From: Tatlockia sp.
GTDB lineage: Bacteria; Pseudomonadota; Gammaproteobacteria; Legionellales; Legionellaceae
Direction of reading: 5' to 3'
DNA: 24,000 bases
Assembly: GCA_041659885.1 (NCBI GenBank)
Contig: JBAZXN010000003.1
Location: 53,980 to 77,979, forward strand
Shown here in pieces: positions 1,333 through 10,701 of the stretch. A program made the position numbers and the translations under genes. A model generated the notes under the pieces. The model did not search any database. It saw nothing but the letters and a program-made list of their open reading frames with translations, and was not told where the DNA came from. The stretch's first letter is position 1. Each line of letters begins with the position of its first letter.

Positions 1333-2226
1333 TTAGATGGTAGCCATATCCGGTGAAACATCCGGTGCTTTCTCATCGTTTTTTTGTAGTCTTTTATAGA
1401 CAGCCGTTCCAAACAGTCCCATTCCAAATAAAAAGAGAGGAACACCAACGCTGGCTGTTATTGCTCCTGCCATGCCAAAGGTTGTCGCATTCAGGAGAGC
1501 AAAGCCTATCGCAACAGCGGTAATTCCTACGGCTGCAATAAATCCACCTAAGACCGTCATGCTAATATTCAATGGATTGCATGATGGGTTTTCTTCCCGA
1601 CGACTCATACTGTTCAGTTCTTTTTGAGCACATTCTAATCCTTGCTTTGCTGCACGCTCAAAAAAGGTGAAGGCTGTACTGTCGTTTTGTTCCACTCCAC
1701 GCCTTTGCTTCAGCATAAGCCCTACGTGATATTGAGCCCTTGCATCACCCCGTTTTGCTGCACGTAAATACCACTCATAAGCTTTTTTCTCGTCTTTGTT
1801 AACCCCAATTCCTTTTTCATGAACCTCTCCTAGGTAGAGTTGTGAGATTGCAAGCCCTACCTCTGCTGCACGCTCAAGCCAAACTAAGGCTTCTGTCACG
1901 TCTTTTTGAACCCCACGGCCCTCTATGAGCATGATTCCCAGGTTATGTTGCGCATCGGCACGTCCTTGCTCTGCTGCAAGACGATACTGATTCACAGCTT
2001 CTTTTTCATTTTGTTCAACCCAACGTCCTGTATCTAGCAGAATGCCTAAACTATATTGCGCTATTGGAAGCCCTTTATCTGCTGCACAACAAATTAACTC
2101 CACGCCTTTTTTTGCGTTCGTTTTATCCCTACCTCCTTCTAGATAATGGCGTCCCAATTCATACTGGGATATTGCATCTCCATCGTGCGCAAATTGTATT
2201 AACTCATTGATGGTTATCGATGGCAT
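1333..2226 (-). CDS. Sel1-repeat (SLR) protein with C-terminal double hydrophobic segment
   Basis: About five tandem ~36-aa Sel1-type units (AVNQYRLAAEQGRADAQHNLGIMLIEGRGVQKD; ALVWLERAAEVGLAISQLYLGEVHEKGIGVNKD; AYEWYLRAAKRGDARAQYHVGLMLKQRRGVEQN). GAGGAG lies 6 nt upstream of the ATG (2226). C-terminus has two hydrophobic stretches, MTVLGGFIAAVGITAVAIGFALL and GAITASVGVPLFLFGMGLFGTAVY. Confidence 0.85.
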   Translation of the reverse strand: MPSITINELIQFAHDGDAISQYELGRHYLEGGRDKTNAKKGVELICCAADKGLPIAQYSLGILLDTGRWVEQNEKEAVNQYRLAAEQGRADAQHNLGIMLIEGRGVQKDVTEALVWLERAAEVGLAISQLYLGEVHEKGIGVNKDEKKAYEWYLRAAKRGDARAQYHVGLMLKQRRGVEQNDSTAFTFFERAAKQGLECAQKELNSMSRREENPSCNPLNISMTVLGGFIAAVGITAVAIGFALLNATTFGMAGAITASVGVPLFLFGMGLFGTAVYKRLQKNDEKAPDVSPDMATI

Positions 2227-4318: not shown

Positions 4319-4612
4319 TTATTTCCACATCACATTACAATTTTTCTGACTTGCCGCTTTTAACAGGTTTATTAACGGCACTGCGCGCGTAGCCAGGCTA
4401 ATTTGCGGCTCGCCGTCTTCGTCATCGGGTGTATTCATTGGCTTTATGTGATTGATATTGTCTTGCAAACTGTGTAATGCTGCCGGGACTTCATCAGCCA
4501 TTATCGCGCCAGGAACGGTGGCACTGTGCCCCATCATTTTTAATAAGCGGGTTGCAACCTCGCCAAACAGGGTAATATTTCCGTATTCACGGCAGGAAAA
4601 GGTCACTAACAT
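4319..4612 (-). CDS. DUF1840-family small protein (uncharacterised)
   Basis: Start placed at the internal ATG 4612 (MLVTFSCREYGNITLFGEVATRLLKMMGHSATVPGAI...), preceded by AAGGAAG. The N-terminal pattern matches my recollection of DUF1840 proteins. Lies 43 bp upstream of the ABC-F gene on the same strand, so probably one operon. Confidence 0.6.
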   Translation of the reverse strand: MLVTFSCREYGNITLFGEVATRLLKMMGHSATVPGAIMADEVPAALHSLQDNINHIKPMNTPDDEDGEPQISLATRAVPLINLLKAASQKNCNVMWK

Positions 4613-4678
4613 AGCGGCTTCCTTCTTAATGGAAAGGTATTTAAAGGGTAGGATAAAACAAAACGAAAGCAAATTGTT

Positions 4679-4708
4679 TTGACAGGAATTCGTAAAAAAA
4701 ATTATAAT
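4679..4708 (+). promoter_or_regulatory. Candidate sigma70 promoter of queA
   Basis: TTGACA (4679-4684), 18-nt spacer, TATAAT (4703-4708), 27 nt upstream of the queA ATG. Confidence 0.45.
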
Positions 4709-4735: not shown

Positions 4736-5752
4736 ATGAATAAACAAGATTTTTATTTCGAACTGCCCGAAGCCTTAATTGCCCAGTATCCTCTGGCCAC
4801 CCGCAGCGCCTCCAGGCTTTTGGCCTACGATCGCCAAACGCGTGAATACCGCCACCAGCATTTTAACGATATCCTCCACTTTTTGCAGGAAGGCGATTTG
4901 CTGGTTTTGAACAATTCCAAGGTAATTCCAGCGCGTCTGTATGGTTATAAAGCAAGCGGGGGAAGGGTGGAGCTTTTGGTTGAACGCTTATGCGAAGGAG
5001 ATACTTTTCTAGCGCATATCAAAGCGAGCAAAACGCCCAAAGCAGGTACCATCATCCACCTTGAAGGGCAATGGCAACTTCAAGTGATAAACAAAATCGA
5101 TGATTTGTACCATTGTCGCTCCTTTGGCAACAGAGATGCCATGCTTGACGCGATTGGTCATATTCCTTTGCCACCTTATATTACTCGCGCAGACGAGCAA
5201 TCGGATTTGGAACGCTATCAAACCGTTTATGCAAGGCACAAAGGCTCGGTTGCAGCACCCACTGCCGGCTTGCATTTTGATGAGGCATTGTTGCAAGCCT
5301 TGCAAAATAAGGGCGTAAGGTTGGCTTATTCTACCTTACATGTGGGAGCCGGAACCTTTCGGCCGGTTCGTTGCGAGGCATTAAAAGATCATAAAATGCA
5401 TAGCGAAGCGTTGGTTATTGATGAGGCGCTTTGTGAGGCAGTTAACGAAACAAAGGCCCGGGGTAAGCGAGTCATTGCTGTGGGAACCACCTCCATGCGA
5501 AGCCTTGAAAGTGCGGCTTTAGCCGATGGAACGTTAAAGCCTGCGCAGATGGACACCACTATTTTTATCTACCCGGGCTATCAATTTAAACTTTGTGACG
5601 GGTTGATAACCAATTTTCATTTGCCAGAATCCACCCTGCTGATGCTCGTTTCAGCGTTTATTGGCCATAGCGAGGCCATGGCGCTTTATCAAGAGGCTAT
5701 AGCAAAAGGGTACCGTTTCTTTAGTTACGGCGATGCCAGCTTACTCCTTTAA
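4736..5752 (+). CDS. queA: S-adenosylmethionine:tRNA ribosyltransferase-isomerase
   Basis: 338 aa. N-terminus MNKQDFYFELPEALIAQYPLATRSASRLL and motifs VAAPTAGLHF, AVGTTSMRSLES, FFSYGDASLL are typical QueA. Conserved position upstream of tgt-yajC-secDF. Confidence 0.95.
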   Translation: MNKQDFYFELPEALIAQYPLATRSASRLLAYDRQTREYRHQHFNDILHFLQEGDLLVLNNSKVIPARLYGYKASGGRVELLVERLCEGDTFLAHIKASKTPKAGTIIHLEGQWQLQVINKIDDLYHCRSFGNRDAMLDAIGHIPLPPYITRADEQSDLERYQTVYARHKGSVAAPTAGLHFDEALLQALQNKGVRLAYSTLHVGAGTFRPVRCEALKDHKMHSEALVIDEALCEAVNETKARGKRVIAVGTTSMRSLESAALADGTLKPAQMDTTIFIYPGYQFKLCDGLITNFHLPESTLLMLVSAFIGHSEAMALYQEAIAKGYRFFSYGDASLLL

Positions 5753-6602
5753 TTCCTGGATTTTGACGATGCAAAATAATAAAAAAACCTGTTTTACCCC
5801 GCTGTTAACGACTCCTGCAGGCTCGACCCTCACGCTTGATAACTGGGAAATGCTAAAGGTAGAGGCAGCCTGCTATGCGCTGGATGCCTTATTAATGAAG
5901 CCAGGACTTTCTTTGTTGAGCAAAGAAAGCCTTAAAGCCTATGGGGGATGGCAGGGCATCGGGGTTTTGAATGCGTCCTTGCTTAAAGCCAATGCAGAAG
6001 GTGTTTGTACGGTTCGCTCTATTTACGATGGCAGCACGCATCACTTGCACTTTTCGCAATTGTATTCGCTCATTGTAAGCCTTGCACCGCAAGTGGTCAT
6101 TTTGCCGGAGGGATTTGTAAATTACCTCACAGCAAATACGCAGGCCTTACCCGATGGGATGGAGGTGTTTATTCCCTGGCAGGAAGAAAAGCCCTCTATG
6201 CACTATGCGGGTTATTATTTTGCCTATGATAAATCGACTTCCTTTTCCGATTTTCTGGCAAAGTTAGCGCACTCGGAAGGAAAACCCTGCTATGGTGCCG
6301 GTGATTTTACCTTGGAGGATTGTATGGCGCTTAAATCCTCTGCGGCCTTTTCTTATATTGAATCAGACAAACCGGCAAAGGATGCCATGGAGGGGGTTAT
6401 TTACCCCAATATCCAGCTTTTAGACGAAGACATGGCGCACCAGCACACACTGCTTGCGGAGGATTGCGCGTGCCCAACCTGTAAGGAAGGATTAACCCGT
6501 GCGTATTTGCATCATCTGCTGCAACATACGCCCTTGCTCTGTCAGCGGTTTTTAATTCAACATAATGCGCATTATTATCAAAATGTTATTGCTCAAGCAT
6601 GA
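5733..6602 (+). CDS. Divergent, shortened tRNA-guanine transglycosylase (Tgt)-family protein
   Basis: Occupies the tgt slot of the queA-tgt-yajC-secDF block. C-terminal Zn motif CACPTCKEGLTRAYLHHLL...IQHNAHYYQ aligns by eye to E. coli Tgt CDCYTCRNYSRAYLHHL...TIHNLRYYQ; the N-terminal CFTPLL aligns to CFMPVG. Only 277-289 aa versus ~375. Start uncertain (ATG 5733 overlaps queA by 20 nt; alternative ATG 5769, MQNNKK). Confidence 0.7.
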   Translation: MPAYSFNSWILTMQNNKKTCFTPLLTTPAGSTLTLDNWEMLKVEAACYALDALLMKPGLSLLSKESLKAYGGWQGIGVLNASLLKANAEGVCTVRSIYDGSTHHLHFSQLYSLIVSLAPQVVILPEGFVNYLTANTQALPDGMEVFIPWQEEKPSMHYAGYYFAYDKSTSFSDFLAKLAHSEGKPCYGAGDFTLEDCMALKSSAAFSYIESDKPAKDAMEGVIYPNIQLLDEDMAHQHTLLAEDCACPTCKEGLTRAYLHHLLQHTPLLCQRFLIQHNAHYYQNVIAQA

Positions 6603-6714: not shown

Positions 6715-6759
6715 ACCCTGAATTGCACCATTATTTGATAGCGAATGAAGGAGATGAAT

Positions 6760-7095
6760 ATGAGTTTTTTGATAAGTAATGCGTTGGCTGCAAGCCCCTC
6801 TGCGCAAGCGGCTCAACCTGATGGAACGGTTTCGCTGATAATGATCGTGGTGATTTTTGCTGTGTTTTATTTTCTGCTTATCCGTCCTCAAAATAAGCGT
6901 GCAAAAGAGCACCGCCAAATGGTGGGTCTGTTAAAAAAAGGCGATGAAGTGATAACAGCAGGCGGTATATTGGGCAAAGTAGTTGGTGTGGATGAACAAT
7001 ACATCAAAGTTTCCATTGCCGATGGGGTAGAAATCACCTTGCAGCGTGCTTCTGTCAGTTCCATTTTACCTAAAGGCACCCTTAAATCCCTTTAA
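6760..7095 (+). CDS. yajC: Preprotein translocase subunit YajC
   Basis: Start chosen at ATG 6760 (AAGGAG at 6749-6754). Sequence MSFLISNALA...LIMIVVIFAVFYFLLIRPQNKRAKEHRQMVGLLKKGDEVITAGGILGKV is the YajC signature. Synteny with secDF. Confidence 0.9.
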   Translation: MSFLISNALAASPSAQAAQPDGTVSLIMIVVIFAVFYFLLIRPQNKRAKEHRQMVGLLKKGDEVITAGGILGKVVGVDEQYIKVSIADGVEITLQRASVSSILPKGTLKSL

Positions 7096-7114: not shown

Positions 7115-8971
7115 ATGCAGAATAAATATCCTCTTTGGAAAAATATTATGCTTATCGCCCTTGTGGTGATTGGTTTAATGTATGCGATACCCAATTTATA
7201 CAGTGAAGATCCTGCGGTGCAGGTTTCTTCACCGACAACGGTTGATATGGACCAACTCTCGCAACAGGTTGTAACCTTATTGAATGAAGCCAAAATACCC
7301 AACCGGGGTATTGCCATTTCGGGCGATCACCTGGAAATCCGCTTCAATTCACCGGATACGCAGCTTCTGGCGAAAGACGTAATCAAAAACGGGCTGGGCT
7401 CGCAGTACACGGTGGCTTTGAATTTGGCTCCTGCAACGCCACGCTGGTTTAGCTCTATCGGTGCTGAACCGATGAAGCAAGGTCTGGATTTGCGCGGAGG
7501 GGTGCATTTTCTGCTTGAAGTCGATGTGGACAGCTTGATTAGCCGACGTTTTGAAGGGTTAATGAAGGGTATCGGGCAAAATCTTCGGGAAGCCGGTATT
7601 CGCTATTCTGGCATTCGCTACGTTGCCGATAAAGGGATTGACATTCGTTTTCGTTCCCCGGAAATCATGGACACTGCCTTGATTGAAATTAAGGACAAAT
7701 TTCCTAATTTGAATGTAACCAAATCGGAAGTGACCAATTCCCTGACAGCAACCTTAACGCCTGCGGAAATAAACCAGATTCGTCAAAACACCATTGAACA
7801 AACCATGAGTATTTTACGGAACAGGGTCAATGAACTGGGTGTTGGTGAAGCGGTGGTGCAACAGCAGGGGGCTACTCGCATTGGCGTGGATTTACCCGGT
7901 ATTCAGGATGCTGCGCGTGCCAAACAAATCCTGGGTGGAACCGCTACCTTGCAATTTTATCTGGTGGATGACACAAACGATGCCCAGATTGCCAAGCAAA
8001 CAGGAGCTGTACCCGTCAGCAGTAAATTGTACATGATGGATGGCAGGCCTATTCTTTTGAAAAGGCAGCTTGTATTAAGTGGGGATTCCATCACCAGTGC
8101 GGTTTCAAGCTTTGATCAGCAAACGGCAAGTCCTTCCGTCCAAATTCAACTGGGCGGGGGGGGCGAAAGCTTGTTTACCCGAATTACCCGCGACAACATT
8201 GGTAAACGCATGGCGATTGTGTATGTAGAGACCAAAGCCACTGCCGAGACAGTCAATGGGAAAGAGCTGCGTACAACCCATCGGGAAGAGCGTGTAATCA
8301 GTGCACCGGTGATTCAAAATGCATTGGGAAATAATTTCCAAATTACCGGTTTAACCGACAGCAAGGAAGCGAGTAACCTGGCACTCTTGCTGAGAGCAGG
8401 CGCTTTGCCTGCGGTGATTTATCCTGTGGAAGAACGTACCGTAGGCCCATCGCTAGGTAAAGAAAATATCCATCGCGGGCTTGTATCCCTTGAAGTGGGC
8501 ATGGGATTAATTCTTGTCCTGATGCTGATTTATTACCACTTCTTTGGTTTGGTCGCAAACATTGCTCTCTTTTTAAACCTGATTTTGCTGAGTGCGCTGA
8601 TGTCTATTATTGGTGCAACGCTGACTTTACCAGGTATTGCCGGTTTCGTATTAACCGTCGGGATGGCGGTGGATGCCAACGTACTGATTTACGAGCGGAT
8701 TCGGGAGGAGCTTCGCAATGGCATGAGTCCGCAAGCAGCAGTGTATGCGGGGTATGATCGCGCCTTTTCAACGATTATGGATGCAAACGTCACCACACTC
8801 ATTGTCGGGATAATCTTATTTGCAATAGGAACTGGCCCCGTGCGTGGTTTTGCGGTAATCCTTTGTTTGGGAATACTCACCTCCATGCTAACAAGCATCA
8901 CTTACACCCGTGCACTCGTGAATTGGTTCTACGGTAGTCGTAATGTGAAAAAATTATCAATTGGCATTTGA
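7115..8971 (+). CDS. secD: Protein translocase subunit SecD
   Basis: Start at ATG 7115 (MQNKYPLWKNIMLIALVV...); the upstream extension in the ORF track overlaps yajC. Large periplasmic domain, then a C-terminal 6-TM bundle with GIAGFVLTVGMAVDANVLIYERIREE. Confidence 0.95.
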   Translation: MQNKYPLWKNIMLIALVVIGLMYAIPNLYSEDPAVQVSSPTTVDMDQLSQQVVTLLNEAKIPNRGIAISGDHLEIRFNSPDTQLLAKDVIKNGLGSQYTVALNLAPATPRWFSSIGAEPMKQGLDLRGGVHFLLEVDVDSLISRRFEGLMKGIGQNLREAGIRYSGIRYVADKGIDIRFRSPEIMDTALIEIKDKFPNLNVTKSEVTNSLTATLTPAEINQIRQNTIEQTMSILRNRVNELGVGEAVVQQQGATRIGVDLPGIQDAARAKQILGGTATLQFYLVDDTNDAQIAKQTGAVPVSSKLYMMDGRPILLKRQLVLSGDSITSAVSSFDQQTASPSVQIQLGGGGESLFTRITRDNIGKRMAIVYVETKATAETVNGKELRTTHREERVISAPVIQNALGNNFQITGLTDSKEASNLALLLRAGALPAVIYPVEERTVGPSLGKENIHRGLVSLEVGMGLILVLMLIYYHFFGLVANIALFLNLILLSALMSIIGATLTLPGIAGFVLTVGMAVDANVLIYERIREELRNGMSPQAAVYAGYDRAFSTIMDANVTTLIVGIILFAIGTGPVRGFAVILCLGILTSMLTSITYTRALVNWFYGSRNVKKLSIGI

Positions 8972-8983
8972 AAAGAGGCTTAG

Positions 8984-9901
8984 ATGGAATTTTTTAATCC
9001 AAACTCAAACATCGATTTTATGGGTGCTCGCAAGTGGACCGCTCTGCTGTCTATACTCATTTTCGTAGTCTCCATCGGCGCTTTGTTGATGAACGGCTTG
9101 AAATGGGGCTTAGACTTTACTGGCGGCACTCAAATTGAAGTGACTTATCCAACACCCGTTGATCTCTCAACTATTCGTGAAAACTTGTACAAGGCAGGTT
9201 TTAAAGAAGCGCAGGTAGTGAGCTACGGTACTTCAAGGGATGTATTAATCAGCATTGCTCCGCGTGCTGACCTTGAGCAAGCAAGCCTCACGGATAAGGT
9301 AATGCAACAGTTACCCGGCGCAACCAAACAACGGGTTGATTTTGTGGGGCCGCAGGTAGGGCAGGAGCTGGCTACAAAAGGCGCCTTGGCCATCATTGTC
9401 GCCTTACTTGCAACCATGTTGTATATTGCCATGCGGTTTGAATACCGACTGGCGGTCAGCTCAGCAGTGGCCCTTGTGCATGATCCCGTCTTGATTTTAG
9501 GTGTTTTTGCCTTGTTTGGGATTGAGTTTGATCTCAAAGCGCTTGCCGGTTTATTGGCGGTTATCGGTTATTCATTAAACGACACCATCGTGGTTTTTGA
9601 CCGGGTGCGAGAGAATTTTATCAAAGTCCGAAGGGCAACCCCCTTGGAAATCATGAATACGTCCATTAACCAAACCCTATCTCGAACCATTATGACTTCA
9701 GTGTTGACCCTGTTTGTTGTCGTGGCCTTGTTTATTTACGGTGGCGAAACGATTCACGGATTTGCGCTGGCTTTAATCATCGGAATTGTCGTTGGAACCT
9801 ATTCATCCATTTACGTTGCAGGGGCTTTAGCTGTGGCAATGGGGCTGGATAAAAAAGATTTTATGCCGGTGCAACGCAGGGAAATTGATGAAAGGCCTTA
9901 A
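8984..9901 (+). CDS. secF: Protein translocase subunit SecF
   Basis: 305 aa. Motifs GLDFTGGT, YSLNDTIVVFDRVREN. AAGAGG RBS. Immediately downstream of secD. Confidence 0.95.
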   Translation: MEFFNPNSNIDFMGARKWTALLSILIFVVSIGALLMNGLKWGLDFTGGTQIEVTYPTPVDLSTIRENLYKAGFKEAQVVSYGTSRDVLISIAPRADLEQASLTDKVMQQLPGATKQRVDFVGPQVGQELATKGALAIIVALLATMLYIAMRFEYRLAVSSAVALVHDPVLILGVFALFGIEFDLKALAGLLAVIGYSLNDTIVVFDRVRENFIKVRRATPLEIMNTSINQTLSRTIMTSVLTLFVVVALFIYGGETIHGFALALIIGIVVGTYSSIYVAGALAVAMGLDKKDFMPVQRREIDERP

Positions 9902-9965: not shown

Positions 9966-10061
9966 GTTGGGCCAAGGCACCAACCTACTTTGAAGTCGTA
10001 TTGTTGGGCCTTGGTCCCACAACATGAGGTCGTATTGTAGGTTGGGCCTCGGCCCAACAAT
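9966..10061. repeat. Cluster of three REP-type hairpins (core GTTGGGCC...GGNCCAAC)
   Basis: GTTGGGCCAAGGCACCAAC (9966-9984); TTGTTGGGCCTTGGTCCCACAACA (10001-10024); ATTGTAGGTTGGGCCTCGGCCCAACAAT (10034-10061, with perfect 8-bp stem GTTGGGCC/GGCCCAAC). The last two are each preceded by GTCGTATTGT. A further half-copy CCAACAAAGCTGAG sits at ~9911. Confidence 0.8.
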
Positions 10062-10075
10062 AACCAATTTGCAAT

Positions 10076-10591
10076 TTATTCACCAAATTGACTACTATCA
10101 AACGCCTCAGCCGTAGCCCAATCCCCTCTGTGAATTGAGCGATGAATACTCGAGTATTGCCATTGCAAAGGCGTTTTCACATACCCATGCTTCACTGGAT
10201 TATAGTATAGGTAATTCATATGGTTTATATAATCTTGTTCGTTTCTAATCGTGTGCTCCCAAAATCTACGCTGCCATATTCCGCGCTCACGTTTGCTTTT
10301 TTTGGAACTATTAATAACCTCTCCAGGTTCAAACTGACGAGAAAAAGCACTTTTTATAAAACCGATGCGTTGAGAATAATTTACCTCATCATTGGGCAAT
10401 GTCATAATGAGATGCAAATGATCAGGGAGTACAACAATCCCATCTATGGTAAAAGGATGGTTTTTTTGCGACTGCAAAAAAGCAATGCGTAATTGGTTTA
10501 TTTTACTGATCAGTAGATTACTTTGTCTGTCCTGTAGCGTTAGAGTAAGAAAATAACTTGCTCGAGGAACATAGACTCGCCGATAGTGCAT
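10076..10591 (-). CDS. REP-associated tyrosine transposase (RAYT; IS200/IS605-like Y1 HUH transposase)
   Basis: 171 aa. HUH motif in LPDHLHLIM; catalytic-Tyr region YLYYNPVKHGYV; N-terminal YFLTLTL pattern. Flanked on both sides by REP hairpins sharing one core. Confidence 0.85.
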   Translation of the reverse strand: MHYRRVYVPRASYFLTLTLQDRQSNLLISKINQLRIAFLQSQKNHPFTIDGIVVLPDHLHLIMTLPNDEVNYSQRIGFIKSAFSRQFEPGEVINSSKKSKRERGIWQRRFWEHTIRNEQDYINHMNYLYYNPVKHGYVKTPLQWQYSSIHRSIHRGDWATAEAFDSSQFGE

Positions 10592-10620
10592 TAAAAAAAA
10601 TTTTTGAATAGCTTATCTAG

Positions 10621-10664
10621 CGCTTTGTTGGGCTGAGAGCCTTAGCCCTCGGCCCAACAAAGCG
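10621..10664. repeat. REP hairpin (REPIN-like) on the other flank of the RAYT gene
   Basis: CGCTTTGTTGGGC (10621-10633) pairs perfectly with GCCCAACAAAGCG (10652-10664). Same GTTGGGC/GCCCAAC core as 9966-10061. Confidence 0.8.
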
Positions 10665-10701
10665 CAGGGGATATTGGTTTTTGACGTGAACCGGTCTTTA
10701 G

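Follow-up and report, generated by a model that had tools for sequence, protein, structure and literature searches.

A stretch of 24,000 nucleotides from Tatlockia sp. (Legionellaceae; GenBank assembly GCA_041659885.1, contig JBAZXN010000003.1, positions 53,980–77,979 of the forward strand), hereafter the window, raises the question of what the gene in its tgt position does. The gene order is that of queA-tgt-yajC-secD-secF in Escherichia coli K-12, where the slot is filled by a 375-aa tgt encoding the tRNA-guanine transglycosylase (Tgt or TGT). In the window, as a preliminary description made from the letters alone had noticed and as the open reading frame (ORF) and its neighbours confirm, the slot holds a shortened homologue of 277–289 aa. 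The upstream queA had been described as intact, which is borne out by its profile scores (Table 1), so that a loss of queuosine insertion would be paradoxical. Three readings of the short gene had been offered, namely a pseudo-enzyme or partner subunit, a Tgt with altered chemistry or substrate, and a decaying gene. On balance, and with modest confidence, we regard it as a conserved non-catalytic member of the Tgt family that would act as a partner subunit similar to eukaryotic QTRT2, although of independent bacterial origin.

Standard profiles recognised the end of the short protein: Pfam TGT matched aa 226–288 (58 bits; residue numbering is that of the 289-aa form throughout), and the Tgt equivalog TIGR00430 gave 33.3 bits over aa 227–288, far below its cut-off of 306.75. 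When a 36-member alignment of the short family was compared with canonical Tgt using hhalign, the match extended over the full length (278 columns, probability 99.7%, E = 1.7e-25). The AlphaFold2 (AF2) model (predicted local distance difference test score 91.8, predicted template-modelling score 0.88) was matched by Foldseek to solved bacterial and eukaryotic TGT structures with query-normalised TM scores of 0.72–0.79, and contained all eight barrel strands as well as the zinc subdomain. The predicted architecture is thus that of bacterial Tgt, a (β/α)8 barrel with a CxCxxC...H zinc subdomain. The zinc motif, which the preliminary description had found retained, is indeed kept, with the ligands C245, C247, C250 and H277 present in 300 of the 302 distinct members of the short family over which all columns were counted. 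Compared with the 375 residues of E. coli Tgt, the protein lacks approximately 20–25 N-terminal residues corresponding to a three-stranded lid, some 36 central residues, mostly from helices, and around 30 residues at the C-terminus. Nine residues are gone right after N80-A-S, following strand 3, which removes F93/Q94, the equivalents of Y106/Q107 of Zymomonas mobilis Tgt. The preliminary description had estimated about 25 N-terminal and 40 central missing residues; the C-terminal loss had gone unnoticed.

The active site was then read in standard Z. mobilis numbering, which was usable because the Z. mobilis sequence employed agreed with PDB 1enu at 385 of 386 positions. In the hhalign alignment, the general acid/base D102 (D89 in E. 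coli) corresponds to Asn80, in keeping with the by-eye replacement of Asp by Asn in LTDSGG, and column 80 holds Asn in 274 and Asp in 23 of the 302 members. The nucleophile D280 (D264 in E. coli) of the motif M-F-D-C-V corresponds to Glu210 of IESD, in a column occupied by Glu (255), Ala (18), Gln (9), Ser (5), Val (4), Leu (2) and Asp (2), so that neither the general acid/base nor the nucleophile Asp is maintained in the family. The substrate-binding D156 (D143 in E. coli) is replaced by Glu126 in a variable column (Gln 50, Glu 46, Lys 43, Pro 37, Ala 31 and others), adjacent to P125, which is conserved in 95% of the family. The preliminary description had rightly seen that the Asp of IFDEC is lost, yet its register was one position off, with Pro125 taken for Glu126. 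Its suggestion that a catalytic Asp might survive in YGAGDFTLED does not stand, as the nucleophile belongs to the FDCV motif and E195 and D196, which are unconserved in the family, are irrelevant to it. No conserved Arg is found in the columns of the tRNA-binding pair R286/R289, and the GGL motif is lost, with the exact register of its strand uncertain; the base- and tRNA-binding set (D156, Y/F106, Q107, GGL, R286 and R289) is therefore not retained. The rigorous profile alignment that had been proposed as a check thus returned no conserved catalytic Asp, and none of the three Asp columns carries an invariant acidic residue across the 302 members. An alternative register obtained by pairwise HMMER alignment with PDB chains, which placed GGWQ on GGYQ and Ala opposite D102, was rejected; the N80 register is supported by the profile–profile alignment, by the anchor FMGW/YGGW and by where the predicted strands end.

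Columns 80 and 210, probably still neighbours in the fold, covary across the family (Asn with acid, 246; Asn with other, 27; Asp with acid, 6; Asp with other, 14; Fisher p = 3e-9, uncorrected for phylogeny). Where position 80 is Asp, an acid at position 210 is mostly lacking, and the catalytic pair is rebuilt in no member. At the sequence level, this pattern suggests that exactly one carboxylate has seemingly been kept in a vestigial pocket. The Asp80 forms were observed in Legionella jordanis, L. lansingensis, L. dresdenensis and their relatives. Approximately 25 members (~8% of the family, 209–260 aa) are devoid of residues ~133–200, which form the middle of the barrel. Given these members and the absence of a rebuilt catalytic pair, conventional base exchange by the short protein appears very unlikely.

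A working Tgt must nevertheless exist, because an intact QueA needs preQ1-tRNA. No second Tgt-like gene was found within the 24-kb window. For L. pneumophila, the annotation tables of Weissenmayer et al. 2011 (PMC3048289) list lpg2727 as 'tgt' (COG0343, 388 aa, 3078392–3079558), expressed and located immediately upstream of ppiB (lpg2726), and place queA at lpg2004 (2243419–2244468). The orthologue of the short gene, lpg2003, lies between queA and yajC, and is listed as 'tgt' and as non-essential in broth by transposon sequencing (Tn-seq; PMC10117105); queF and yhhQ are recorded as present in this species (PMC7811196). Whereas lpg2727 is known here from annotation tables, residue data come from its relatives of the type found on metagenome contig L083. 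This contig was the single match when metagenome contigs were scanned with a degenerate DNA pattern combining two Tgt motifs with the cyclophilin motif FHRVI, and it carries a 383/384-aa tgt (206–1354) followed by a 164-aa ppiB; the same pattern had no match in viral contigs. The best 120 relatives of the L083 Tgt are 75–87% identical to it and 382–401 aa long (one has 379 aa), and all those with a name are annotated as Tgt or queuine tRNA-ribosyltransferase from Legionella, Tatlockia or Legionellales. These Legionellaceae catalytic Tgts pass the TIGR00430 cut-off with 388–402 bits, and D102, S103, F106, Q107, D156, Q203, G229/G230, M260, D280, R286, R289 and the zinc ligands are present in 120/120 clusters.

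In L. lansingensis, ~427 kb of chromosome LT906451.1 separate the catalytic tgt and its neighbour ppiB from the short gene and queA, so that a catalytic paralogue is found in the same genome in this species as in L. pneumophila (lpg2003 and lpg2727). When matched by species name, both genes also occur in L. jordanis, L. nautarum, L. dresdenensis, L. fairfieldensis and Legionella sp. PATHC038. The second canonical tgt for which the preliminary description had suggested a genome search was thus found, in other Legionella genomes and beside ppiB, and the queA paradox is removed because these genomes hold a complete, catalytically intact copy elsewhere. This enzyme has peculiarities of its own: its pocket motif GGLAVGE reads GGETIGF, with L231E and E235F in 120/120 clusters (and likewise in L084:6001–7158), and ~10 residues are inserted before the zinc motif. 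It is 40–46% identical to proteobacterial Tgt (45% to the E. coli enzyme) and scores equally against the Thermotoga maritima and E. coli enzymes. Regarding its neighbours, tgt is followed by ppiB (cyclophilin, Lcy) and by an opposite-strand COG2860/Gly_transporter membrane protein gene in both L. pneumophila (lpg2727–lpg2725) and L. lansingensis (L084:6001–8381), and contig L083 (203–1883) shows tgt then ppiB only; the pairing of tgt with ppiB seems to be conserved in Legionellaceae.

The distribution of the short gene was assessed by a QueA-anchored scan with one genome per species, which yielded 53 Legionellaceae loci from Legionella, Tatlockia, Fluoribacter and metagenome-assembled genomes (MAGs). 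It directly follows queA with an intact frame in 53/53 loci, and none of them has a canonical tgt within 6 kb of queA. The gammaproteobacterial outgroup loci with a queA-adjacent tgt encode the canonical form instead (five complete products of 365–381 aa and one truncated where its contig stops), which is 63–70% identical to E. coli Tgt. Searching 1.84 billion cluster representatives with a profile retrieved 258 members of the short family at E ≤ 1e-30; among the best 150 of these 258 matches, nearly all are 209–295 aa long. All named members belong to Legionella, Tatlockia or Legionellaceae. The ratio of non-synonymous to synonymous substitution rates (dN/dS), the comparison across orthologues that had been recommended at the outset, is 0.10–0.29 for the short gene versus 0.02–0.12 for queA over the same 40 close species pairs. 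The short gene is under purifying selection, relaxed approximately threefold with respect to queA. It stays beside queA in L. lansingensis, where yajC-secDF no longer lies downstream, and it never adjoins the catalytic tgt in the loci examined. Two variants were observed among the MAGs. One from Tatlockia (L005:7000–8150) has a 314-codon ORF, not Tgt-like and of unchecked function, between queA and the short gene. The other, from Legionella (L016:7172–8602), has a C-terminal extension of ~200 residues, of unchecked family, giving 476 aa in total, which could reflect either a genuine fusion or faulty assembly.

The case for a partner role comes from the dimer interface. In the Z. mobilis TGT homodimer, we take this interface to be centred on an aromatic hot spot of W326, Y330 and H333 packed against F92' of the other subunit, together with a salt bridge K52–E339'; the PDB entries retrieved carry the interface mutants F92C, W326E/E339Q, K52M, Y330C/F and H333A/D. 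Within the short family, conservation is highest at the zinc site and in the two helices that follow: 18 of the 25 positions of aa 254–278 are 88–99% conserved, compared with a protein-wide median of 43%, including Y258 (equivalent to Y330; 298/302, 99%) and H261 (equivalent to H333; 294/302, 97%). A second conserved region comprises the N-terminal loop-helix and Y70/W73, and the two regions correspond to the two faces of the homodimer interface. The catalytic paralogue has a median conservation of 98%, yet the positions of W326, Y330, H333 and E339 reach only 51–62%; its F92/M93 and loop-helix motif are ~100% conserved, and K52 is Asn in 120/120 clusters. Conservation thus points to a hot-spot helix that is kept under constraint in the dead copy but relaxed in the live one, with the opposing surface maintained in both.

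According to the published consensus, catalysis in a TGT dimer falls to one subunit at a time, and its partner positions the tRNA (PMC13416341). QTRT2 has Glu272 in place of the nucleophile Asp and Cys94 in place of the second one, keeps barrel and zinc domain, and also forms homodimers when alone (PMC6165067). A QTRT2-like partner role is the best-supported reading because the complementary conservation of the hot spot, the consensus on a single active subunit and the residue parallel with QTRT2 concur. In this reading, the short protein would pair with the catalytic Tgt at the canonical dimer interface and assist in holding the tRNA, in the manner of QTRT2 with QTRT1. The preliminary option of a pseudo-enzyme or partner subunit has thus gained support from the second, intact tgt; the physical pairing itself, and an effect on queuosine formation, we infer from the conservation patterns. 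A bolder proposal, which we advance tentatively and trust somewhat less, is that the enzyme is heteromeric: the divergent lpg2727-type protein would have lost its own hot spot and depend on the lpg2003-type protein as an obligatory structural subunit, which would make the pair the first bacterial, and independently evolved, counterpart of QTRT1/QTRT2.

Concerning the origin of the two copies, the short family scored 181 in hhalign against ordinary gammaproteobacterial Tgt and 94 against the Legionellaceae catalytic Tgt, and the short protein keeps the E. coli-like RAYLHHL helix. Because it is closer to gammaproteobacterial Tgt than to the catalytic copy, and because the outgroup genomes fill this slot with a canonical tgt, the gene in the slot looks like a degenerate native tgt, as far as this history can be read from present-day sequences. 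Base exchange would have passed, in the common ancestor of Legionellaceae, to a divergent but complete second tgt of the lpg2727 type, either a duplicate or a xenologue, and the native copy would have been kept for a non-catalytic purpose. The slot copy has shed its N-terminal lid along with several helices, the Asp residues for catalysis and substrate binding, and the Arg pair contacting the anticodon loop; what remains is the barrel scaffold plus the zinc subdomain and the helix bearing the dimer hot spot. The short-family profile gave 70–92 bits against bacterial Tgt, ~67 against QTRT1 and 38.5 against QTRT2. The family is thus no closer to QTRT2 than to other TGT clades; horizontal transfer of a eukaryotic QTRT2 was rejected on these scores, which speak for an independent bacterial origin. 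Identity with DpdA was likewise rejected, as there was no PADLOC match to DpdA (only a chance-level one to Can1, E = 0.026) and no dpd-type neighbours were found, and no structure of archaeosine TGT or DpdA was matched at E < 0.01.

Several observations weigh against the partner role. Both halves of the interface persist in the short protein (Y70 in place of F92, plus Y258/H261), so that a homodimer of short subunits with another role fits the conservation equally well. The reference set for the canonical interface was exclusively proteobacterial and the catalytic paralogue is very divergent, so its relaxed hot spot may reflect its lineage of origin. The K52–E339 salt bridge of the Z. mobilis enzyme is absent from both proteins, ~8% of members are devoid of residues ~133–200, and the catalytic paralogue is known from relatives rather than from the genome of the window. 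We consider the dispensability of lpg2003 in broth uninformative. Such a homodimer belongs to a rival explanation, which we find rather doubtful, namely that the short protein is non-catalytic but acts alone: it could bind tRNA or 7-deazaguanine, for instance to hand preQ1-tRNA to QueA, sense or sequester a queuosine precursor, or titrate the catalytic Tgt. This would account for its constant position beside queA, across a 16-nt spacer with no terminator and even where yajC-secDF has left (L. lansingensis), and never beside the catalytic tgt, and it is consistent with the conservation of both interface halves within one protein and with the homodimers formed by QTRT2 alone. Residues at the top of the barrel are also conserved (KPG, LNAS, P125, ESDxP), and the covariation of columns 80 and 210 suggests that a single-carboxylate pocket is maintained; the natural variants without residues ~133–200, however, argue against a strictly required barrel pocket. 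Moreover, no ligand or partner can be named from the sequence, and this explanation offers no account of why the hot spot of the catalytic paralogue is relaxed.

The two further explanations contend with the active-site and selection data. A minimal transglycosylase with Glu210 as the nucleophile, perhaps acting on another base, tRNA position or nucleic acid, would fit the presence of Glu at this position in 84% of members and the prediction of all barrel strands, and the D264E mutant of E. coli Tgt reportedly keeps some activity. However, D89N is said to be inactive, and 91% of members carry Asn in place of the general acid/base Asp; those with Asp80 mostly lack the acid at 210, and QTRT2, with the same Asp-to-Glu change, is inactive. 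With D156, the F/Y106–Q107 segment, the GGL motif and R286/R289 lost, no invariant acid in the pocket, half the barrel missing from some members (the ~8% without its middle) and no DpdA-like signal, we deem this explanation improbable, and the altered chemistry envisaged in the preliminary description unlikely with it. The notion of a decaying remnant draws on the shortening and the loss of catalytic residues, on evolution some three times faster than that of queA, on the deletion variants and on the non-essentiality in L. pneumophila. It is refuted by the frame intact in 53/53 genomes, by ~300 distinct intact members with near-invariant motifs and zinc ligands in 300/302, by dN/dS values of 0.10–0.29 and by a confident AF2 model, and we give it practically no credence.

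The features of the locus are collected in Table 1. The putative promoter upstream of queA is probably that of a queA/short-tgt transcription unit, and a scan of the window revealed no terminator-like site between the two genes. The short protein likely starts at Met13, 16 nt after the queA stop codon, because the family alignment, a 277-aa database entry and an independent gene call agree on this start. QueA itself is 63–76% identical across Legionellaceae. The inverted repeat downstream of the short gene occurs once in the window and was not found in the same spacer of 25 other Legionellaceae loci, and the idea of a conserved regulatory hairpin was rejected; it is particular to this genome and probably outside the function. 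Upstream of queA, a divergent DUF1840 gene (window 4319–4672) is found in the same place in L. lansingensis, and L. pneumophila has at this point lpg2005 (hypothetical, family unchecked), between queA and the uup-A ABC-F gene lpg2006. A Sel1-repeat protein with four repeats is encoded nearby (window 1333–2226).

Table 1. Features of the queA–secF region, with positions counted from the first letter of the window.
Feature	Position	Strand	Remarks
Sigma-70-like promoter TTGACA-18-TATAAT	4679–4708	+	Candidate upstream of queA; 12/12 consensus matches; consensus scan only
queA, tRNA preQ1(34) S-adenosylmethionine ribosyltransferase-isomerase	4736–5752	+	Intact; Pfam PF02547 433 bits; NF001140 473 bits (cut-off 324)
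Short Tgt-family gene, orthologue of L. pneumophila lpg2003	5769–6602	+	277 aa from Met13; ORF opens at 5733 (289 aa)
Codons N80-A81-S82, motif VLNAS	5970–5978	+	Replace D-S-G of LTDSGG; hhalign, codons checked
Codons P125-E126, end of strand β4	6105–6110	+	E126 aligns to substrate-binding Asp156 (Z. mobilis); hhalign
Codons E210-S211-D212-K213-P214, motif IESDKP	6360–6374	+	Replace F-D-C-V-x-P; E210 at the position of nucleophile Asp280
Zinc subdomain, aa 226–289	6408–6599	+	Most conserved part of the protein; helices LTRAYLHHL...HTPLLCQRFLIQHN contain L254, Y258 and H261, which are equivalent to TGT dimer hot-spot residues
Perfect 22-bp inverted repeat, 6-nt loop	6665–6714	+	Spacer between short tgt and yajC; fold z-score −7.7; no T-run after it
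yajC	6745–7095	+	Pfam YajC 105 bits; likely start ATG 6760 behind AAGGAG
secD	7115–8971	+	ORF opens at 7046; from ORF list
secF	8984–9901	+	From ORF list

Elsewhere in the window, an IS200-like Y1 transposase gene, similar to those of repetitive extragenic palindrome (REP)-associated tyrosine transposases (RAYT), lies on the minus strand at 10076–10591. It is flanked by GC-rich palindromes at 9999–10062 and 10620–10665 with the common core TTGTTGGGCC/GGCCCAACAA, and the whole segment (9999–10665) looks like a REP/RAYT unit inserted after secF. The segment 12257–16694 contains a pilin-like gene with an N-terminal methylation motif, followed by ORFs of 173 and 937 aa without Pfam matches, and may be a minor pilin cluster of the PilW/PilX/PilY1 type. 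A 374-aa protein (16788–17912) carries a glycosyl hydrolase family 45 domain (PF02015, E = 2e-13), and the gene is a possible eukaryote-like acquisition because this family is mostly known from eukaryotes. Further along lies prfB (17975–19079), with the classical programmed +1 frameshift site, CGGGGG TAT CTT TGA C, at ~18038–18053, followed by lysS (19076–20572). Towards the low-GC end of the window (GC 0.39), a serine resolvase/invertase gene and then a RhuM-family gene (22181–23214) are probably part of a mobile element.

If the partner-subunit reading is true, the split into QTRT1 and QTRT2 was repeated independently in bacteria, and Legionellaceae would offer an experimentally tractable case in which to study why TGTs require a second subunit. 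According to the literature, bacterial TGT is a homodimer, and the heterodimer of catalytic and non-catalytic subunits is eukaryotic (PMC6165067, PMC13416341); within the literature searched, nothing was found on the lpg2003/lpg2727 pair or on a bacterial non-catalytic Tgt paralogue. The short gene is labelled 'tgt / queuine tRNA-ribosyltransferase' in Legionella genomes and Tn-seq tables, a label that may direct metabolic reconstructions and mutant screens to the wrong gene. TGT has also been considered as a target for anti-virulence drugs, and for such work it matters that the enzyme of a pathogen has an altered pocket (L231E/E235F) and an altered dimer interface.

Among known systems, the short protein shares with bacterial Tgt (EC 2.4.2.29; E. 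coli b0406, Z. mobilis) the slot, the fold, the zinc motif CxCxxC...H and the RAYLHHL helix with the hot-spot Tyr and His, but it lacks ~98 residues, has lost D102/D156/D280, the Arg pair and the base-stacking segment, and fails the equivalog cut-off. With the Legionellaceae catalytic Tgt of the lpg2727 type, its presumed functional partner, it shares superfamily and genomes, and the two are distant (hhalign score 94). DpdA and archaeosine TGT are, like the short protein, members of the Tgt superfamily with altered function, but neither a DpdA match, an archaeal TGT match nor dpd neighbours link it to them. The closest parallel is QTRT2 (QTRTD1), to whose functional class, though not to whose lineage, it would belong, as it keeps the TGT barrel and zinc subdomain around a degenerate substrate pocket in which the catalytic Asp residues are replaced. 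Glu272/Cys94 of QTRT2 correspond to Glu210/Asn80, that is, the same Asp-to-Glu change at the nucleophile and a non-acidic residue for the second Asp, and in both cases the catalytic paralogue is encoded elsewhere in the genome. The short protein is smaller, with 277 aa against ~415, and is devoid of the N-terminal lid and C-terminal helix. QTRT2 heterodimerises with its catalytic subunit, and interface conservation suggests, indirectly, that the short protein may do likewise.

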